From sequence record PV467748.1: a stretch of DNA of 64,000 nucleotides; one strand, written 5' to 3'. The position numbers and the translations under genes were made by a program. The notes under the pieces were generated by a model. It saw only the letters and a list, made by a program, of their open reading frames with translations, was not told where the DNA came from and did no database searches. Source of the stretch: a phage. This document shows, one piece after another, positions 1,948 to 50,675 of this stretch. Numbering within the stretch: position 1 is the first letter of the stretch; every line of letters starts with the position of its first letter.

Positions 1948-3930
1948 ATGTCTTTATTATCACCGGGCATTGAGCTCAAAGAAACGTCCGTACAGAGTAC
2001 TGTCGTTCGTAACGCAACGGGTCGTGCAGCGCTGGTTGGTAAATTCCAGTGGGGCCCTGCTTTCCAGGTAACTCAAATTACTAACGAAGTTGAACTGGTG
2101 GATTTGTTTGGAGGTCCTAACAACGAAGTGGCAGATTATTTTATGTCTGGTATGAACTTCCTCCAATATGGTAACGACCTTCGTACTGTTCGTGTTGTTA
2201 ACCGTGAATTCGCTAAAAACGCATCTCCTGTTGCAGGCAATATCGAAACCACTATTACTACGGCTGGTTCTAACTATGCAGTAGGCGATAAAATTAATAT
2301 CAAGCACAACCAAACTGTTGTTGAATCTGAAGGTCGTGTGACTTCTGTAGATACGGATGGTAAAATTCTTTCCGTGTTTATCCCATCAGCAAAAATTATT
2401 GCTTATGCACGTTCTTTAAACCAGTATCCTACCCTGGGCCCGGCTTGGACGGCTGAAGTTACTTCCGCTTCTTCTGGTGTTTCCGGTACTATTACCGTAG
2501 GTAAAATTGTTACGGATTCAGGTATTCTTTTAACTGAAGCAGAGAACAGTGAAGAAGCTATTACTTCCCTGGAATTCCAAGCATCTCTTAAGAAATTTGC
2601 TATGCCAGGCGTAGTTGCTCTTTATCCAGGCGAAATTGGTTCCACCTTAGAAGTAGAAATCGTTTCCAAAGCCGCTTATGATGTTGGTTCTTCTAAAATG
2701 CTGGATATTTATCCGGGCGGTGGTTCTCGTGCTTCTATTGCCAAGGCGGTATTTAATTACGGGCCACAAACAGATGACCAATACGCGATTATTGTTCGTC
2801 GTGATGGCGCTATCGTAGAATCTGTCGTACTTTCTACCAAAGAAGGTGAAAAAGACGTTTACGGTAATAACATTTATCTTGACGACTATTTCGCTAAAGG
2901 TACTTCTAACTATATTTTTGCTACCTCTTTGAACTGGCCTAAAGGCTTCAGCGGTATCATTAATCTGATGGGTGGTGTATCTGCTAACGATCAGGTTACT
3001 GCGAGTGATTTGATGCAGGGTTGGGATTTGTTCGCCGACCGTGAAGCCCTCCATATTAACCTTTTGATTGCCGGGGCCGTTGCCGGTGAAGGTGATGAAG
3101 TTGCTTCTACCGTCCAGAAACACGTTGTTAGTATTGCTGATGAACGTCAGGATTGCTTGGCATTTATTTCTCCTCCTAAAGGACTGTTGGTTAACGTTCC
3201 ATTGACTCGTGCAGTAGATAATCTTATCGACTGGCGTACCGGTGCAGGTACTTTCGATACCAACAACATGAACATTAGCACCACTTATGCTGCTATTGAC
3301 GGTAACTATAAATATCAGTATGACAAATATAATGACGTAAACCGTTGGGTGCCTCTGGCAGCTGATATGGCTGGTTTGTGTGCGCGTACAGATGATGTTT
3401 CTCAGCCTTGGATGTCTCCGGCCGGTTATAACCGTGGTCAGATTCTTAACGTTTTGAAATTGGCAATTGAACCCCGTCAAGCTCAACGCGACCGCATGTA
3501 CCAAGAAGCTATTAACCCGGTTGTTGGTTTTGCTGGTGGCGATGGTTTCGTATTGTTTGGTGATAAGACTGCAACTAAAGTTCCATCTCCGATGGACCAT
3601 ATTAACGTTCGCCGTCTGTTCAATATGCTTAAGAAAAATATCGGTGATGCCTCTAAATATAAACTGTTTGAATTGAACGATAACTTCACTCGTTCAAGCT
3701 TCCGTATGGAAGTTTCTCAGTACTTAGATGGTATTAAGGCACTTGGTGGGATTTATGAAGGACGTGTGGTTTGTGATACTACAGTGAACACCCCTGCGGT
3801 TATAGACCGTAATGAGTTTATTGCTAATATCTACGTTAAACCTTCTCGTTCCATTAACTACATCACGTTGAACTTCGTTGCAACGAGCACTGGTGCTGAT
3901 TTTGATGAATTGATTGGACCTTTAGTATAA
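1948..3930 (+). CDS. 18: contractile tail sheath protein
   Basis: 660 aa; N-terminus and length match T4 gp18; synteny. Confidence 0.95.
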   Translation: MSLLSPGIELKETSVQSTVVRNATGRAALVGKFQWGPAFQVTQITNEVELVDLFGGPNNEVADYFMSGMNFLQYGNDLRTVRVVNREFAKNASPVAGNIETTITTAGSNYAVGDKINIKHNQTVVESEGRVTSVDTDGKILSVFIPSAKIIAYARSLNQYPTLGPAWTAEVTSASSGVSGTITVGKIVTDSGILLTEAENSEEAITSLEFQASLKKFAMPGVVALYPGEIGSTLEVEIVSKAAYDVGSSKMLDIYPGGGSRASIAKAVFNYGPQTDDQYAIIVRRDGAIVESVVLSTKEGEKDVYGNNIYLDDYFAKGTSNYIFATSLNWPKGFSGIINLMGGVSANDQVTASDLMQGWDLFADREALHINLLIAGAVAGEGDEVASTVQKHVVSIADERQDCLAFISPPKGLLVNVPLTRAVDNLIDWRTGAGTFDTNNMNISTTYAAIDGNYKYQYDKYNDVNRWVPLAADMAGLCARTDDVSQPWMSPAGYNRGQILNVLKLAIEPRQAQRDRMYQEAINPVVGFAGGDGFVLFGDKTATKVPSPMDHINVRRLFNMLKKNIGDASKYKLFELNDNFTRSSFRMEVSQYLDGIKALGGIYEGRVVCDTTVNTPAVIDRNEFIANIYVKPSRSINYITLNFVATSTGADFDELIGPLV

Positions 3931-4664: not shown

Positions 4665-6239
4665 ATGGCAAACTTTAATACAATATTAAGTTTTCTTAAG
4701 CCATGGGCTAATGAAGACGAAAAAGAATATAAACAACAAATTAATAACAATTTAGAGTCTGTCACCGCACCTAAGCTTGATGATGGCGCTCGCGAAATTG
4801 AGACACAAGAGCAAAATATTCCTTATAATGCTCTTATGCAACAGATGTTTGGTAGTAATGAGCCTGAAGTTAAAAATACCAGGGAACTTATTGATACCTA
4901 CCGTAATTTAATGAACAACTATGAAGTCGACAACGCCGTACAGGAAATTGTGTCTGACGCTATTGTCTATGAGGATGATAAAGAAGTAGTTGCATTGAAT
5001 TTAGACGGGACAGAATTTAGTCAAGCAATTAAAGATAAAATCTTGGCCGAATTCAGTGAAGTTTTAAACCTTTTAAATTTCCAACGTAAAGGCACTGACC
5101 ATTTCCAACGCTGGTATGTAGACTCAAGAATTTTCTTTCATAAAATTATAAACCCTAAAAAAATGAAAGATGGCGTACAAGAGCTTCGTCGCTTAGACCC
5201 ACGCCAAGTCCAATATATTCGAGAAATCGTTACACGTATGGAAGATGGTGTTAAAGTTGTAGACGGATATCGCGAGTTTTTCGTTTATGATACAGGCCAT
5301 GAAAGTTATTGCGCTGATGGACGCATTTATTCGGCCGGGACTAAAGTTAAAATTCCTCGTGCTGCAGTGGTTTATGCACATTCTGGATTATTAGATTGTT
5401 GTGGTAAAAACATCATTGGCTATTTGCAACGTGCTATTAAGCCTGCAAACCAGCTTAAATTGATGGAAGACGCAATGGTCATTTACCGTATTACCCGTGC
5501 TCCCGACCGTCGTGTGTTTTATATCGATACTGGTAATATGCCTTCACGTAAGGCGGCAGCACAAATGCAACATATCATGAACACGATGAAAAACCGTGTT
5601 GTGTATGATGCTTCGACAGGTAAAATTAAAAACCAACAACACAATATGTCCATGACTGAAGACTATTGGTTGCAACGTCGTGATGGTAAAGCGGTAACAG
5701 AAGTTGATACAATGCCAGGTGCTACTGGTATGAGTGATATGGATGACGTTCTTTATTTCCGCACAGCACTTTACCGTGCGTTGCGTGTTCCTGAATCACG
5801 TATCCCTAGCGAGTCTAATTCTGGCGTTATGTTTGATGCTGGTACAGCAATCACTCGTGACGAATTAAAATTCTCTAAATGGATTCGTCAACTACAAAAC
5901 AAATTTGAAGAAATTTTCCTAGACCCGTTAAAAACAAACCTCATTCTTAAAAAGATTATTACAGAAGATGAGTGGGAAAAGGAAATAAATAATATTAAAG
6001 TTACGTTTAACCGTGATAGCTATTTCAGTGAAATGAAAGATGCTGAAATCATGGAACGCAGAATCAATATGCTAACGATGGCTGAACCATTTATTGGTAA
6101 GTATATTTCACATCAAACGGCTATGAAAGATTTCCTCCAAATGACCGACGAAGAAATTAATCAAGAAGCTAAGCAAATTGAAGAAGAGTCTAAAGAGGCT
6201 CGTTTCCAAAACCCAGATGAAGAAGAAGAGGATTTCTAA
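4665..6239 (+). CDS. 20: portal vertex protein
   Basis: 524 aa, same length as T4 gp20; synteny. Confidence 0.95.
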
Positions 6240-8414: not shown

Positions 8415-9974
8415 ATGAAAAAGAATGCATTAGTTCAAAAATGGTCCGCTCTGCTGGAAAACGAAGCCCTTCCTGAAATCGTGGGTGCTTCTAAACAAGC
8501 TATCATCGCTAAAATTTTCGAAAACCAGGAACAAGACATCCTGACTGCTCCGGAATACCGTGATGAAAAAATCTCTGAAGCATTTGGTTCTTTCCTGACC
8601 GAAGCTGAAATTGGTGGTGACCACGGTTATGATGCTACCAATATCGCAGCTGGCCAGACTTCTGGTGCTGTAACTCAGATTGGGCCGGCAGTAATGGGTA
8701 TGGTTCGTCGTGCTATTCCTCATCTGATTGCTTTTGATATTTGTGGTGTTCAGCCTCTGAATAACCCTACCGGCCAGGTATTTGCCCTTCGTGCAGTTTA
8801 TGGTAAAGACCCTATCGCTGCTGGCGCTAAAGAAGCTTTCCATCCGATGTATTCTCCGGACGCTATGTTCTCTGGTCAGGGCGCTGCTCAGACTTTTGAA
8901 GCACTGGCTGCAAGCAAAGTTCTGGAAGTTGGTAAAATTTATTCTCACTTCTTCGAAGCTACCGGTGCTGCACACTTCCAGGCTGTTGAAGCTGTAACCG
9001 TTGATGCTGCTGCTACCGATGCCGCTAAACTGGATGCTGCTGTTACCGCTTTGATTGAAGCTGGTAAGTTGGCTGAATTGGCTGAAGGTATGGCTACTTC
9101 TATCGCTGAACTTCAGGAAGGCTTTAACGGTTCTACTGATAACCCGTGGAACGAAATGGGCTTCCGTATCGATAAACAAGTTATCGAAGCTAAATCTCGT
9201 CAGCTGAAAGCAAGCTACTCTATCGAACTGGCACAGGACCTTCGTGCAGTACACGGTATGGATGCAGATGCTGAACTGTCCGGTATCCTTGCTACCGAAA
9301 TTATGCTCGAAATCAACCGTGAAGTTATCGATTGGATTAACTACTCTGCACAGGTTGGTAAATCTGGTATGACCAACACCGTTGGCGCTAAAGCTGGTGT
9401 GTTTGACTTCCAGGACCCGATTGATATCCGTGGTGCTCGTTGGGCCGGTGAGAGCTTTAAAGCCCTTCTGTTCCAGATTGATAAAGAAGCAGCCGAAATC
9501 GCTCGTCAGACCGGTCGTGGTGCTGGTAACTTCATCATCGCTTCCCGTAACGTAGTTAACGTACTGGCTGCAGTTGATACTTCTGTAAGTTATGCAGCTC
9601 AAGGTCTGGGTCAGGGTTTCAACGTTGACACAACCAAAGCAGTATTTGCCGGTGTTCTTGGTGGTAAATATCGTGTTTACATCGACCAGTATGCTCGTTC
9701 CGATTACTTCACCATCGGTTATAAAGGTTCCAACGAAATGGACGCAGGTATCTACTATGCTCCGTACGTTGCACTGACTCCGCTGCGTGGTTCCGATCCG
9801 AAGAACTTCCAACCGGTAATGGGCTTCAAAACTCGTTACGGTATCGGTATTAACCCGTTCGCTGACCCAGCTGCTCAGGCGCCTACCAAACGTATTCAGA
9901 ATGGTATGCCTGACATCGTTAACAGCCTCGGTCTGAATGGTTACTTCCGTCGCGTATATGTTAAAGGTATCTAA
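8415..9974 (+). CDS. 23: major capsid protein
   Basis: 519 aa; strong similarity to T4 gp23. Confidence 0.97.
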   Translation: MKKNALVQKWSALLENEALPEIVGASKQAIIAKIFENQEQDILTAPEYRDEKISEAFGSFLTEAEIGGDHGYDATNIAAGQTSGAVTQIGPAVMGMVRRAIPHLIAFDICGVQPLNNPTGQVFALRAVYGKDPIAAGAKEAFHPMYSPDAMFSGQGAAQTFEALAASKVLEVGKIYSHFFEATGAAHFQAVEAVTVDAAATDAAKLDAAVTALIEAGKLAELAEGMATSIAELQEGFNGSTDNPWNEMGFRIDKQVIEAKSRQLKASYSIELAQDLRAVHGMDADAELSGILATEIMLEINREVIDWINYSAQVGKSGMTNTVGAKAGVFDFQDPIDIRGARWAGESFKALLFQIDKEAAEIARQTGRGAGNFIIASRNVVNVLAAVDTSVSYAAQGLGQGFNVDTTKAVFAGVLGGKYRVYIDQYARSDYFTIGYKGSNEMDAGIYYAPYVALTPLRGSDPKNFQPVMGFKTRYGIGINPFADPAAQAPTKRIQNGMPDIVNSLGLNGYFRRVYVKGI

Positions 9975-10022: not shown

Positions 10023-10289
10023 CTATGCAATCTTAACACGATGGTTGATGATATCACGGAAGTCAATACGATTTTCTTGGATTTTCAGCCAGTTACCAGA
10101 TTTGTCTTTGGTATGGGTAGAGTATTCACCGTTCCACCAGAAGTCGGTAGCATAAGCCATGGCTTCGTATTTCTTAACTAGTGCATTCACTGCATTACCG
10201 TTAGGATTGGAACCATATTTTTCTACCAGGGCTTTGATGTCTTTATCAAGAGCGGAAAGAGTAGTACGAATAAAGTTTAACTTGTTCAT
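10023..10289 (-). CDS. hypothetical early protein in the 23/24 intergenic slot
   Basis: ORF with GAGGAG SD before the internal Met (MNKLNFIRTT...); own early-type promoter upstream; no recognisable domain. Confidence 0.5.
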   Translation of the reverse strand: MNKLNFIRTTLSALDKDIKALVEKYGSNPNGNAVNALVKKYEAMAYATDFWWNGEYSTHTKDKSGNWLKIQENRIDFRDIINHRVKIA

Positions 10290-10318
10290 TTTTAATCTCC
10301 TCATGTTTTGATAGGTCT

Positions 10319-10348
10319 ATAGTAACATGTGATAACCTTGCTGTAAAC
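10319..10348 (-). promoter_or_regulatory. early sigma70-type promoter (GTTTAC, spacer, TACTAT)
   Basis: Reverse complement reads GTTTAC...TACTATAGACCTATC; member of a repeated promoter/leader family. Confidence 0.5.
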
Positions 10349-10354
10349 AACTTT

Positions 10355-10362
10355 TATAAATA
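10355..10362 (+). promoter_or_regulatory. late promoter TATAAATA upstream of gene 24
   Basis: Exact TATAAATA. Confidence 0.55.
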
Positions 10363-10390: not shown

Positions 10391-11674
10391 ATGGCAAAGA
10401 TTAACGAATTACTGCGCGAGTCAACAACTACTTCTAGCAACTCATTGGGTCGCCCTAATCTTGTTGCTTTGACCCGTGCTACAACCAAATTGATTTACCG
10501 TGATATTATTGCTGAACAACGTACTAGCCAGCCTATTGCTGCATTGTATGGTGTCAAATATCTTACTCCTGATAATGAATTTAGCTTCCAAACTGGTGCC
10601 GTTTATGGTGGTGAAGTTGGTTCTAAAGACCGTGAAACTATCCCGGAACTCACAGATAAGGCCCAGGCTATTGCCAAGGGTGAATATTTCAAGTATCAGA
10701 ACATAGTTTATAAGGCTCTTCAAGCAAGCCCACTCGCATCCACTAGCGCTACAGGATTGGCTGATGCTCTTCAAGAAGGTTTAGTGTCATTAACATGTCG
10801 TCTGGTTCCGGACGCTGCTCATACCACTAAATTCGAAGCGAGTGATGTAGAAATCTCTGATGCTGTATTCCAGGTAAATAAATGGAATGCTCCTGTTAAG
10901 ACTCGTAAATTGAAGACTGCTTTGACAGTAGAATTGGCACAGGATATGGAATCAAATGGATTCGACGCCCCTGCATTCTTAGAAGACCTCCTGGCTACAG
11001 TAATGGCAGATGAAATTAATAAAGACGTTCTGCAATCCTTGATTACGGTATCTAAACGTTATAAAGTTACCGGTGTATCTGATAACGGCATCATAGATTT
11101 GACTTATGATAGTGCTCCGGAATCTGCACGTAAACTTTATGAAATTGTTTGTGAGATGAATTCTGAAATCCAGAAAACTACTTCTTATTCTGGTACGTTT
11201 GTTGTGGCTTCAAGTCGTGTGGCTGCAATGCTTGCAGGTTCTGGCTGGTTAAAACATAAACCTGAAGATAATAATTGGCTCCCAGAAACCGCCTATGGGT
11301 ATTTGTTGAATGGATTACCTCTGTTCTGTGACGTTAACAGCCCGTTGGATTATGTTATCGTCGGTGTTAAAGAGAACTATGGTGGTAATGAAGTTGTCGG
11401 TTCTATTTTCTATGCCCCGTATACAGAAGGCCTGGATTTAGACGACCAAGAACACGTTGGCGCTTATAAGGTTATTGTCGACCCGGATTCATTACAGCCT
11501 TCTATTTCTCTGATGGTTCGTTATGCACTGTCCGCTAATCCATACACCGTAGCTAAAGACGATAAAGAAGCTCGTGTTATAGATGCAACTAATATGGATT
11601 TAATGGCGGGCCAGAGTAATATGTCTTATCTGCTTGGTGTTAAACTTCCAGCAATTATTTACGAGGCTGATTAA
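10391..11674 (+). CDS. 24: capsid vertex protein gp24 (ortholog copy)
   Basis: 427 aa; very close to T4 gp24. Confidence 0.95.
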   Translation: MAKINELLRESTTTSSNSLGRPNLVALTRATTKLIYRDIIAEQRTSQPIAALYGVKYLTPDNEFSFQTGAVYGGEVGSKDRETIPELTDKAQAIAKGEYFKYQNIVYKALQASPLASTSATGLADALQEGLVSLTCRLVPDAAHTTKFEASDVEISDAVFQVNKWNAPVKTRKLKTALTVELAQDMESNGFDAPAFLEDLLATVMADEINKDVLQSLITVSKRYKVTGVSDNGIIDLTYDSAPESARKLYEIVCEMNSEIQKTTSYSGTFVVASSRVAAMLAGSGWLKHKPEDNNWLPETAYGYLLNGLPLFCDVNSPLDYVIVGVKENYGGNEVVGSIFYAPYTEGLDLDDQEHVGAYKVIVDPDSLQPSISLMVRYALSANPYTVAKDDKEARVIDATNMDLMAGQSNMSYLLGVKLPAIIYEAD

Positions 11675-12954
11675 TGTCTAAGATTGTAGACCTAATTAAA
11701 GAATCCACATTGACGGCTGCCAACTCGGTTGGCCGTCCTGCTCTTCTTTCATACACCCAAGCAACTAATAAACGAATCTTTAAAGCCTTAGTTGCTGAAC
11801 AAAAAACAAGTCAACCTGTTGCCGCTCTGTACGGGGTTCGTGTACTTAATCCTGATGACAAAATGACTTATCTTGGTGGCGCTACATTTGCAGGCCAGAT
11901 TGGTATGTCGGAACGTGAAAATATTCCTGAATTTACCGATTCGTCTACAGCTTATGCAGCCGGCGATATGTTCCAGTTTGAAAGTGTAGTGTTTAAAGTT
12001 CTGGAAGCATCTCCTTTCGCCGGAACCACAGAAACTGACCTCGGTGAAGTTATTTCTGAAGCAGTGGCTGCTGGGCATATTCGTATGGTATCAGATGCGG
12101 CTATTACTTCTAAATTCGAACAGGGCCATCCTGAAATTGCTGAAGCAGGCTTCCGTATTGATAAGTGGCAGACTGAAGTTAAATCACGTAAACTGAAAAC
12201 TTCATTGACCGTCGAATTAGCCCAAGATCTAGAATCAAACGGGTTTAATGCTCCTAATTTCGTTGAAAACCTGCTAGGCATTCAAATGGCAGAAGAAATT
12301 AATAAGGACGTATTACAGTCATTAATTACGGTGAGTTCTCGTTTTAAAGTCCAGGGTGTTTCCGAAAAGGGTGTATTGGACCTTACCAACCCACGTTACG
12401 ATAATGCTCAGGACCGTGCTCGTACATTGTATTATTACATGTGTGAGATGAACTCTGCCGTACAACGCCAGACTTCTTTCGCTGGGACTTATGCAGTAGC
12501 TAGTTCTCGTTGTGCCGCTATTCTTGCCGCATCTGGTTGGGTTGAGAAAAAGGAAGACCAAGACGAACTGGCTTACGGTATATTAAAAAATGGCCTGCCT
12601 CTTTATGCCGATATGAATAGTCCGTGTGATTATGTTATTGTTGGTGTAAATGCTCAGATGGGTGAAGGACAGACGGTCGCATCTTTATATTATGCGCCTT
12701 ATACGGAAGGTTTGAATGAGGTTGATGAGGAAGGGGATACTTCAGTAGGTGAATTTAAGGTTATTGTTGACCCGGAAAGCTTACAACCTACAGTAGCATT
12801 GCTTGCTCGTTATGCATTGACTGCAAACCCTTATACCGTCGCTAAGGACGATAAAGAAGCCCGCATTATTGATGGTTCTGATATGGACAAAATGGCTAAT
12901 CAAAGTCAATTGAGTTCTTATCTCGGTGTAAAATTACCACCTTTAGAAAAATAA
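11674..12954 (+). CDS. capsid vertex protein paralog (second, divergent gp24-like copy)
   Basis: 426 aa; alignable over full length with the upstream gp24 (shared LQSLITVS, YAPYTEGL, KVIVDPxSLQP, ANPYTVAKDDKEAR blocks) at roughly half identity. Confidence 0.85.
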   Translation: MSKIVDLIKESTLTAANSVGRPALLSYTQATNKRIFKALVAEQKTSQPVAALYGVRVLNPDDKMTYLGGATFAGQIGMSERENIPEFTDSSTAYAAGDMFQFESVVFKVLEASPFAGTTETDLGEVISEAVAAGHIRMVSDAAITSKFEQGHPEIAEAGFRIDKWQTEVKSRKLKTSLTVELAQDLESNGFNAPNFVENLLGIQMAEEINKDVLQSLITVSSRFKVQGVSEKGVLDLTNPRYDNAQDRARTLYYYMCEMNSAVQRQTSFAGTYAVASSRCAAILAASGWVEKKEDQDELAYGILKNGLPLYADMNSPCDYVIVGVNAQMGEGQTVASLYYAPYTEGLNEVDEEGDTSVGEFKVIVDPESLQPTVALLARYALTANPYTVAKDDKEARIIDGSDMDKMANQSQLSSYLGVKLPPLEK

Positions 12955-14312: not shown

Positions 14313-14397
14313 AACAATTCTCTCGTTGAGCCGGTAAAACTCATCTTAACATAGAATTTTTAACTTGTAAACAGGAATTTTGTACTTTAATGCAAAA

Positions 14398-15965: not shown

Positions 15966-15973
15966 TATAAATA
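15966..15973 (+). promoter_or_regulatory. late promoter TATAAATA upstream of uvsW
   Basis: Exact TATAAATA. Confidence 0.5.
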
Positions 15974-15979
15974 TAACTA

Positions 15980-15987
15980 TATTTATA
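15980..15987 (-). promoter_or_regulatory. late promoter (TATAAATA on the - strand) upstream of inh
   Basis: Reverse complement is TATAAATA; divergent from the uvsW late promoter. Confidence 0.45.
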
Positions 15988-19582: not shown

Positions 19583-19604
19583 TGTCTTCTCCTTTAAGCT
19601 TATT

Positions 19605-19612
19605 TATAAATA
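19605..19612. promoter_or_regulatory. palindromic late promoter shared by divergent genes 26 and 51
   Basis: TATTTATAAATA reads TATAAATA on both strands. Confidence 0.5.
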
Positions 19613-26131: not shown

Positions 26132-26161
26132 ATAGTACCACATCCTTGTGGTGTTGTAAAC
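26132..26161 (-). promoter_or_regulatory. early sigma70-type promoter (GTTTAC ... TACTAT)
   Basis: Reverse complement GTTTAC, 18-nt spacer, TACTAT. Confidence 0.4.
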
Positions 26162-28287: not shown

Positions 28288-30372
28288 TTACCCTTGGATG
28301 AATTTTTCTGGGATGTCATAGAGGTCTATGCATGAAGCCAAAAGAGGCAGTACATCAAACCGGGTAGATTTAACAAATGAATCAAAAGATACAGGGCTTT
28401 CGGAAGTATCGAAGTCATCTTGGTATACAACCAATTCACCAGTTTCCATTAGTACGTCACCATCATACACTACAGATTCTTGAAGCTCATCTGTTGTCAT
28501 AACTTCAGCTTGAATGAGTTTTGTATTATTAGATGTTGTTCCATCATTATTAGAAGCATCTGTTATTTTATTAACTTTGACCATTAATCCACGTGGTAGA
28601 ATAACTTCAGCTTCAGTTGCTATTCCGAGATTTCCTGGATATACAACATTAACTTTATGAGCACCGTCAATTGCCCATCCTATTTGAGCTTTAACGTAAT
28701 CAGGATTTTCCTTATACGCCCTTATTTCATTAGGGTTAATAGTTATTCCTTCTTCATTTTTATCGACTGTCAATTCATTGCGAACTTCCGGTTCTAAAAG
28801 ACCGATACCAGCGTGTGTAACACCAAATCGTCCAAAAATGATAGGGGTTAAAGAAGTAGATACAAAATTTCTGAAATAGAACACTTTATTTTTAACTAGT
28901 GCTTCGTATATAGGAGCAGTCATACTCTGGGCACGATAAACTGTGATGCCTTCTGGTATACGGTCGCCGTTTTCAAAAGCTGAATCTAAATTATTTATCG
29001 CAGATTCAATTTCTTTTTCACTCATTACCTCATATCGTTCTGGATTGTAGCGACCTAAAAGAAGATTATTGATGTCAGTATATCCTGAACCACAATATTC
29101 TCTGATACCACGCTTTTGTGATGGAGTATATTTAGAACCCTCACGAGCAATAGTAATATCAACCATAATACCGCCACCTACACCAGCAAAACTATAAACA
29201 CATTTTTTAATGAACTTGGTCTTAGTGGCTTTCCACTTGGACTCGGTTAATTCATTCCAGACGTCGTCAGGTTGACCTTTACGAGTTTTGTTATGCTTGG
29301 CCAACCATTTGGCTTTGTATTCTTCGAAAATGGTATTAATAGCAGAGGCATATTTTTCTAGAGCTTTAACAGATGTCAAAGGTTCGTTTTTGATGGCCGC
29401 AAGAATTTTATCTTTAATTTTCTCTTGGATTTCACCTATACCGTGAAGAGGAAACATTTTGTAATCGTAATGCAATTCTTCAGCAGTGCCTTCAGCTATT
29501 ATATTAGCAACCTTATTTTTAGCCGCAGGAGAATTGTTATTAGTAACCATTTCCTGGGCCTCAGGGATTAATGGAGCTGTTGCTGGTTTATTAAAATCCA
29601 CTGCAGTAGCTTCATATTTCTTAAACAGTTCACTTTCATTACGATAAGATTCTAACGATTGACTTGCTGCAATAGCACGACGCGAAATCTTAGTCTTGGT
29701 TATAACCATTTTATCAGTGCGACGTTCTTCAACTTTAGCAATACTGCCGGCAATAGCAGTTTCTTTAGTAACCTGCACACCTTCTTTTTTAGAAATATAA
29801 ACTTCACCGACATCAGAATCTACCTTAGTGTATAATTCGGAATTAATTCCAGGCATACCTTTGATATCTTCGATATCAGCTTGTTTACGAACTACTAGAA
29901 TATAAGTATGTTTACCAGTAAATTGGTACATAGCCGGAACTACTTTGAAGCGTCCACCTGTTTTTTGAGTTGCCAAACGTTGGATAATCCGTTGGACGAT
30001 AGGTCCTTGCCCTTTCATTTTCTTGGTTGGAAAACGGAACATCACAGCATCCATACGAAGCTTTTTAACTTGTTCGAATACTACGTCGAAAATGGTATTA
30101 ATAGCATCAATAGGAGTAGGGCCTAAGCCGCCTTTAAGTTCGGCTGGAGAACCTTTAGCTGAAAGGCTCATAAGGATAATGTGGGCGTATTTATCACCTA
30201 ATTTAACCTGTTTAATAGCATCGCCTTCAGAGGCATAAGATACCATACGAGCAACCAATTGGGATTCAGCATCGCCAATCTTCCAAATCTGGGGTACTTT
30301 AAGTTTTGGGTTTAAGTTTACAGTAGGCAGGGTGCCTTCGGACTCAAACACCTCATTCAATTGTTCGGTCAT
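28288..30372 (-). CDS. Alt-like packaged mono-ADP-ribosyltransferase, paralog 2
   Basis: 694 aa; same N-terminal module; C-terminal YRAQ, FVSTSL, EAEVILPRG. Confidence 0.85.
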   Translation of the reverse strand: MTEQLNEVFESEGTLPTVNLNPKLKVPQIWKIGDAESQLVARMVSYASEGDAIKQVKLGDKYAHIILMSLSAKGSPAELKGGLGPTPIDAINTIFDVVFEQVKKLRMDAVMFRFPTKKMKGQGPIVQRIIQRLATQKTGGRFKVVPAMYQFTGKHTYILVVRKQADIEDIKGMPGINSELYTKVDSDVGEVYISKKEGVQVTKETAIAGSIAKVEERRTDKMVITKTKISRRAIAASQSLESYRNESELFKKYEATAVDFNKPATAPLIPEAQEMVTNNNSPAAKNKVANIIAEGTAEELHYDYKMFPLHGIGEIQEKIKDKILAAIKNEPLTSVKALEKYASAINTIFEEYKAKWLAKHNKTRKGQPDDVWNELTESKWKATKTKFIKKCVYSFAGVGGGIMVDITIAREGSKYTPSQKRGIREYCGSGYTDINNLLLGRYNPERYEVMSEKEIESAINNLDSAFENGDRIPEGITVYRAQSMTAPIYEALVKNKVFYFRNFVSTSLTPIIFGRFGVTHAGIGLLEPEVRNELTVDKNEEGITINPNEIRAYKENPDYVKAQIGWAIDGAHKVNVVYPGNLGIATEAEVILPRGLMVKVNKITDASNNDGTTSNNTKLIQAEVMTTDELQESVVYDGDVLMETGELVVYQDDFDTSESPVSFDSFVKSTRFDVLPLLASCIDLYDIPEKFIQG

Positions 30373-40430: not shown

Positions 40431-40460
40431 ACTATACCACAGTCCTACCATGATGTAAAC
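40431..40460 (-). promoter_or_regulatory. early-type promoter (GTTTAC ... TATAGT) with -10 in the loop of a 9-bp hairpin
   Basis: GGTAGGACT / AGTCCTACC stem at 40422-40449 flanks the -10. Confidence 0.45.
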
Positions 40461-42379: not shown

Positions 42380-42414
42380 AATAATTTCCTCAAATTTTAT
42401 AATCCGTAGGAGCA

Positions 42415-42443
42415 TTATACTCTGCTCCCAAGAGTTTGTAAAC
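42415..42443 (-). promoter_or_regulatory. early promoter GTTTAC-17-TATAAT
   Basis: Consensus-like hexamers on the - strand. Confidence 0.5.
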
Positions 42444-50645: not shown

Positions 50646-50675
50646 ATAGTATCACTACCATAGCCTGATGTAAAC
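50646..50675 (-). promoter_or_regulatory. early promoter (GTTTAC ... TACTAT) inside inverted repeat AGGCTAT/ATAGCCT
   Basis: Cassette family member. Confidence 0.45.

Follow-up and report, generated by a model that had tools for sequence, protein, structure and literature searches.

A conserved small gene behind an early-type promoter lies antisense between capsid genes 23 and 24 of Dhakavirus and related T-even phages

Main

[quoted passage not shown] The ORF was analysed in a 64,000-nucleotide stretch of phage DNA (sequence record PV467748.1; hereafter the window, the whole of that stretch, to which coordinates refer unless another record is named). It is already known as JS98 orf173, related to RB69ORF188c/189c and VR7ORF190c.

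The ORF and its genomic surroundings

Near position 10 kb, the gene order is that of the head region of a T-even phage, with prohead protease and scaffold genes, gene 23, two gene 24 paralogues and, on the − strand, rnlB. The gap between gene 23 and the first gene 24 paralogue (24a) spans 416 bp and contains a single − strand ORF (Table 1). An initial annotation had described an 88-aa − strand ORF with a GAGGAG Shine–Dalgarno sequence and an early-type promoter, flanked by the terminator of gene 23 and the late promoter of gene 24; all of these elements were located in the sequence. Taken mechanically, the ORF extends from 10023 to 10304 and encodes 93 aa from an in-frame upstream ATG at 10304; the 88-aa start is preferred on sequence grounds, as it has a ribosome-binding site and is common to the homologues in other genera (at the corresponding position, PhAPEC2 has GAGGAG and VR7 has GGAG).

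On the − strand, the hairpin that forms the gene 23 terminator lies 13 nt past the ORF stop codon, where its RNA folds at −22.5 kcal/mol (z −5.1) and is not followed by a U-tract. The hairpin is conserved in relatives, with a changed stem sequence in VR7; on the ORF strand, it is followed by a good T-tract in VR7 and by no U-tract in the window or PhAPEC2. Since the − strand hairpin lacks a U-tract, transcripts may run antisense into gene 23. Downstream of the gap, the tandem paralogues 24a and 24b are 56% identical over their full length; the gene 24 duplication occurs in Dhakavirus, Gaprivervirus and two uncultured T-even phages, and a single copy is present in Mosigvirus PhAPEC2 and T4.

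Table 1 Positions of the ORF, its predicted signals and neighbouring features in the window, with the corresponding T4 promoter.
Feature	Position	Strand	Basis and details
Gene 23, major capsid protein	8415-9974	+	ORF list, JS98 annotation
Hairpin, 9 bp, UUCG/CGAA loop	9988-10009	both	Terminator scan; gene 23 terminator on the + strand
88-aa protein CDS	10023-10289	−	ORF list and translation; ATG 10289-10287, stop codon 10025-10023
Shine–Dalgarno GAGGAG	10302-10297	−	Read from the sequence; 7 nt before the ATG
Sigma-70/T4-early-type promoter (predicted)	10319-10348	−	Promoter scan; −35 GTTTACA 10348-10342 (GTTTAC 10348-10343, TTTACA 10347-10342), extended −10 TG-n-TACTAT 10327-10319 (TACTAT 10324-10319)
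A/T-rich stretch 5′ of the −35 element, in UP-element position	10349-10362	−	DNA shared with the gene 24 late promoter on the opposite strand
Gene 24 late promoter TATAAATA	10355-10362	+	Pattern search; divergent, 6 bp from the −35 element
Gene 24a, the first head vertex protein paralogue	10391-11674	+	ORF list, JS98 annotation
Gene 24b, second gene 24 paralogue	11674-12954	+	ORF list
T4 segD promoter (predicted)	3254-3282 of the examined T4 stretch; ~107,253-107,281 of T4 record NC_000866	−	Scan

Conservation, selection and distribution

The window comes from a JS98-like Dhakavirus: this region is 99.6–99.8% identical to JS98, EcWhh-1, NC-G and MN04, all members of the genus Dhakavirus, and the ORF corresponds to JS98 orf173 (EpJS98_0173, AAU29301.2; annotated as a hypothetical protein), which is 98.9% identical, occupies the same slot and strand behind the same promoter and differs by one amino acid (H84 versus R84). 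VR7ORF190c (~62% identical) and the Mosigvirus copies (~34% identical) likewise share slot, strand and promoter. By tblastn, approximately 240 phage records carry the ORF, nearly all as full-length matches at 34–99% identity (90–99% in Dhakavirus, ~60% in Gaprivervirus and ~34% in Mosigvirus). The profile hidden Markov model (HMM) of phrog_6003, a family of unknown function, matched residues 1–88 of the protein along positions 1–88 of its 90 (E = 1.6e-49, 166.8 bits), and the named members of three 90%-identity clusters are all hypothetical or uncharacterised proteins. A literature search with the ORF names and accessions returned nothing relevant, and no paralogue of the ORF was found within the window.

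The 23–24 slot and the orientation of the ORF are the same in Dhakavirus, Gaprivervirus, Mosigvirus and two uncultured T-even contigs. This stable synteny over three Tevenvirinae genera, down to 34% identity, contradicts a reading of the gene, raised as possible cargo in the initial annotation, as a recent insertion: as judged from its distribution, the ORF has long resided in the slot in three genera. Among seven Dhakavirus copies (20 pairwise comparisons), dN/dS was 0.05–0.19, with dS up to 0.69 and dN no higher than 0.057, and residues M1, K3, F6, G31, N32, N35 and Q71 were invariant in a 14-sequence alignment reaching down to ~30% identity. By these substitution patterns, the ORF truly codes for protein and evolves under purifying selection, and this selection, together with long vertical inheritance, indicates that its function matters in nature, a poor fit with a throw-away accessory gene.

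Some copies are broken. In the RB69 reference (NC_004928), the orthologue is split into RB69ORF188c (41 aa) and RB69ORF189c (29 aa), reflecting either a laboratory-strain pseudogene or old sequencing errors; the split copy, at 5292-5532 (−) of the examined RB69 stretch, differs from PhAPEC2 by a cluster of substitutions and by indels. The copy in phage mogra is frameshifted, and one further record holds a 64-aa truncated version. The broken copies in the RB69 reference and mogra, along with the 64-aa version, imply that the ORF is not indispensable.

A profile search covering 1.84 billion representative proteins recovered a handful of true relatives, all of 84–90 aa, three of them beyond the query set (P0016, P0018 and P0019). 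P0018 and a 61%-identical counterpart in the Vequintavirinae phage ABPH49 are each surrounded by small genes that form a long array on one strand and mostly match no family. The P0018 copy is preceded by a sigma-70-like promoter of its own and followed by a hairpin; P0019 sits between tail genes and converging replication genes on a siphovirus-like contig. By these genomic contexts, the family is small and confined to phages, it occupies non-core positions on the three or more genome backbones that carry it, and its hosts are probably all enterobacterial. Three long candidates with 3–9 matched stretches each (P0017, P0020 and P0022) were rejected as internally repetitive sequences, spurious on inspection. 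Also rejected was P0021, a 160-aa metagenomic protein with an unrelated N-terminal part and a piece of the family at its C-terminus; its C-terminal 30 residues are identical to family residues 36-62 (ALVKKYETMAYATDFWWNGEYSTHTKD), and it resembles a chimera made during assembly or gene calling.

An early-type promoter in front of the ORF

The predicted promoter has the hexamers (9 of 12 positions matching) and the 17-bp spacing, counted from TTTACA, of T4-type early promoters, with a TG before the −10 hexamer; its orthologous position is kept, and it is correctly placed for the downstream ORF, with a transcript start predicted near 10312. The A-rich, UP-like feature of such promoters is also present, with ATAAAAG directly upstream of GTTTACA. 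Early promoters of T4-type phages commonly have an A-rich region at −40 to −44 and GTTTAC as the −35 consensus (PMC1524935). Within the A/T-rich stretch upstream of the −35 element, the TATTTATAAA block was invariant in a four-phage alignment, and the stretch may work as an UP element. Neither a MotA box (middle promoter) nor a late promoter TATAAATA was seen by eye on the ORF strand. Elsewhere in the window, paired TATAAATA motifs on opposite strands were observed at 15966-15987 (within 22 bp) and at 19601-19612 (overlapping), and may be divergent late promoters.

The promoter scan returned one promoter-like match in 1 kb against 2.5 expected, which is not significant alone. The T4-early pattern GTTTAC-N18-TANNNT occurs eight times in the window against 1.05 expected, a count reached in none of 100 shuffles, and seven of the eight occurrences are on the − strand. 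Five of the other − strand matches (14343-14372, 26132-26161, 40431-40460, 42414-42443 and 50646-50675) read GTTTACA, four of them with a TG close before the −10 hexamer. Two more matches lie at 11106-11135 (−) and 29883-29912 (+). These further sites are probably other early promoters of the phage; the one at 11106, inside gene 24a, may be a chance occurrence.

Comparison among genera supports the promoter assignment. In an alignment of the intergenic region from Dhakavirus (the window and IME08), Gaprivervirus VR7, Mosigvirus PhAPEC2 and T4, GTTGTTTACA (ATTTACA in T4), the −10 hexamer (TAnnnT/CATAAT) and the 17-bp spacing are kept, and the sequence of the spacer diverges; the T4 promoter was placed by local alignment, as a global IME08–T4 alignment misplaces it. 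At the corresponding RB69 site, an HMM had predicted an early promoter on the − strand (Pe:109605), together with the gene 24 late promoter Pl:109573 and a '23-><-RB69ORF188c' terminator (Nolan et al. 2006, PMC1524935). The early-type promoter proposed in the initial annotation is thus borne out by hexamers and spacing that are conserved across genera and by an independently predicted counterpart in RB69. The early timing of ORF expression is itself a prediction, drawn from the promoter type and from the orthologous T4 slot, which is occupied by a different gene.

A variable slot between genes 23 and 24

Across T-even phages, the 23–24 slot was found in four states: empty, promoter with segD, promoter with the ORF, and promoter with both the ORF and segD. 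The initial annotation had remarked that the slot is variable and that T4 carries a seg gene there, and both remarks agree with this comparison, T4 having segD between genes 23 and 24 on the same strand as the ORF. In most Tequatroviruses (T2, RB27, RB9 and hundreds of others) the slot is empty, promoter and ORF both being absent; in RB27, for example, an 83-bp spacer carries the terminator of gene 23 and the late promoter of gene 24 alone, and the − strand has no promoter (312-396 of the examined RB27 stretch). Most of a T4 query containing segD was carried by 53 of the 807 matching records. Wherever the early promoter was present, a gene followed it in the slot.

The T4 segD cassette resembles that of the ORF in its slot, its antisense orientation and its orthologous promoter, which points away from the adjoining late promoter of gene 24, but the proteins are unrelated, SegD being a 223-aa GIY-YIG homing endonuclease. 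Local alignment and a scan placed the T4 segD promoter at TTTACA, 17 bp, TG-n-TATTAT, with 10 of 12 matches. A 2010 review found no segD-specific promoter and considered that the segD transcript is perhaps vanishingly low (Edgell et al. 2010, PMC2988022); contrary to that review, segD gains a plausible promoter from the slot comparison. Time-resolved omics of T4 list segD as 'early-RNA_middle-Protein' and give SegD protein intensities (supplements of PMC9697503). The early segD RNA in that dataset, combined with the orthologous T4 promoter, implies that the slot promoter is active early in T4, and we infer the same early activity for the promoter in JS98-type phages.

In IME08-type Dhakaviruses, segD begins 3 nt past the ORF stop codon, with no promoter between the two. 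The ORF of IME08 ends in ...RRVKAA (examined IME08 stretch, 1634-2590, −), and copies without segD end in ...RVKIA or ...RVKIV; from these endings, the segD insertion junction or a co-converted tract seems to reach the last ORF codons. With the two genes this close, they would share promoter and transcript, and the T4 slot consists of the promoter plus segD, both of which would suit an ORF that is part of a segD mobile element, whether it helps the element, provides its target site or is left over from it. We regard that relationship as highly improbable: most carriers have the ORF without segD, no endonuclease gene is annotated or called adjoining the ORF in Mosigvirus, Gaprivervirus or the non-T-even homologues, T4 segD is present and expressed without the ORF, and Pfam and NCBIfam scans of the ORF protein revealed no GIY-YIG or other nuclease motif.

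The slot comparison also bears on whether the transcript, instead of the protein, could be what is maintained. An early 'anti-late' RNA might enter the 3′ end of gene 23 and damp premature capsid expression, or affect the terminator; the promoter is kept in T4 despite the different ORF behind it, and the absence of a U-tract after the − strand hairpin, here and in PhAPEC2, makes read-through into gene 23 plausible. However, the dN/dS values of 0.05–0.19 and protein conservation to ~30% identity reflect selection on the amino-acid sequence, the T-tract on the ORF strand in VR7 means that read-through is not conserved, the promoter is absent altogether from most Tequatroviruses, and none of the homologues in other phages runs antisense to capsid genes. 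An antisense role is, in our assessment, very unlikely.

Position alone might point to a head-assembly accessory factor, the ORF having the major capsid gene on one side and the vertex protein gene on the other in every T-even phage that carries it. This idea we consider scarcely credible, given that the ORF is on the opposite strand behind an early rather than a late promoter, that T4, T2 and most other Tequatroviruses lack it and have homologous capsid genes, that it occurs with either one or two gp24 genes and that its homologues elsewhere lie among non-structural small genes.

Protein properties and predicted fold

The product is a soluble, basic protein of 88 aa (~10 kDa, pI 9.4; pI 8.0–9.65 across the family). 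AlphaFold2 models of the window protein (pLDDT 84, pTM 0.67) and of a Mosigvirus orthologue (pLDDT 89, pTM 0.76) agree in topology: helix 3-25, an invariant N-G-N-x-x-N loop, helix 31-48, an aromatic-rich β-hairpin (strands 56-60 and 66-70 in the better model) and helix 76-88. Scans of the protein against Pfam, NCBIfam and PADLOC gave no meaningful match (the one NCBIfam line scored 12.7 bits, far short of the 600-bit cut-off, and is noise), no match in a PDB sequence-profile search had an E value below 0.13, and comparison of the fold with characterised proteins gave no informative match. Foldseek against BFVD returned one 88-aa protein without a name, 40% identical. The α-α-β-β-α order, the length of ~90 aa and the charge had suggested an HU/IHF-type identity, which was rejected, hhalign detecting no similarity to a HupA profile. 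The statement in the initial annotation that the protein has no recognisable motif held when homology scans and structure prediction were run, which yielded only phrog_6003 and the unnamed match.

Proposed role

Together, these observations suggest the following sequence of events. Host sigma-70 RNA polymerase would initiate at the GTTTACA-17 bp-TG-n-TACTAT promoter and produce a short monocistronic mRNA of ~300 nt from the strand opposite genes 23 and 24, and translation from the strong GAGGAG site would yield the basic 88-aa protein. This protein would be made only in the first minutes of infection and would probably bind a host protein or nucleic-acid target stoichiometrically, a mode of action proposed because the protein has no catalytic motif. 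Such binding would aid host takeover or fitness in a way that is not needed under laboratory conditions, and would not be a capsid or core function.

Small early proteins that serve host takeover or anti-defence are well represented in T-even phages and include AsiA, Arn, Dmd and Acb2/vs.4. The ORF product resembles them in its size (~10 kDa), early sigma-70 promoter, lack of a catalytic motif and non-core status.

A narrower version of the early-binding reading is counter-defence, in which the protein would be made early and inhibit a host anti-phage system. Several features suit it: the protein is small and has no enzymatic motif, its gene has an early promoter and a variable slot, and its occurrence is patchy across unrelated phages, with occasional loss; moreover, T4 has no homologue, such that screens of early Mosigvirus genes based on T4 homology would miss the family. 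But no characterised protein was matched by sequence (PDB profile, Pfam) or by fold, the basic protein is no DNA mimic, and the high conservation within genera (dN/dS ~0.1) differs from the rapid diversification often seen in arms-race genes. On this balance we hold counter-defence to be unlikely. The anti-defence role suggested in the initial annotation fared similarly, with no match to any characterised protein and no hit among the PADLOC defence-system models, and stays a guess based on position and gene type.

A still more specific proposal is that phrog_6003 represents a new early-effector family with an undescribed α-α-β-hairpin-α fold, exchanged among coliphage lineages (T-evens, Vequintavirinae and a siphovirus-like phage) and neutralising an Escherichia coli defence or host factor, with the N-G-N-x-x-N loop and the aromatic hairpin as the putative binding surface. 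We advance this only tentatively and think it doubtful as it stands.

Significance

The ORF is an ordinary feature: a conserved early gene, entered as a hypothetical protein in some 240 phage records, that occupies a variable slot within the late region. The early promoter type at this slot had already been predicted for RB69 in 2006 (PMC1524935), and the slot comparison presents the 23–24 slot as carrying a portable early-promoter cassette. A screen in Mosigvirus AV110 covered 45 early proteins chosen by homology to T4 early proteins and concerns a different protein, Gp94/Emp; phrog_6003 falls outside that screen because T4 lacks a homologue. The ORF is one of the uncharacterised accessory genes found in therapeutic-type coliphages, and should its protein prove to inhibit a host process or a defence system, the catalogue of such proteins would gain a new small fold.
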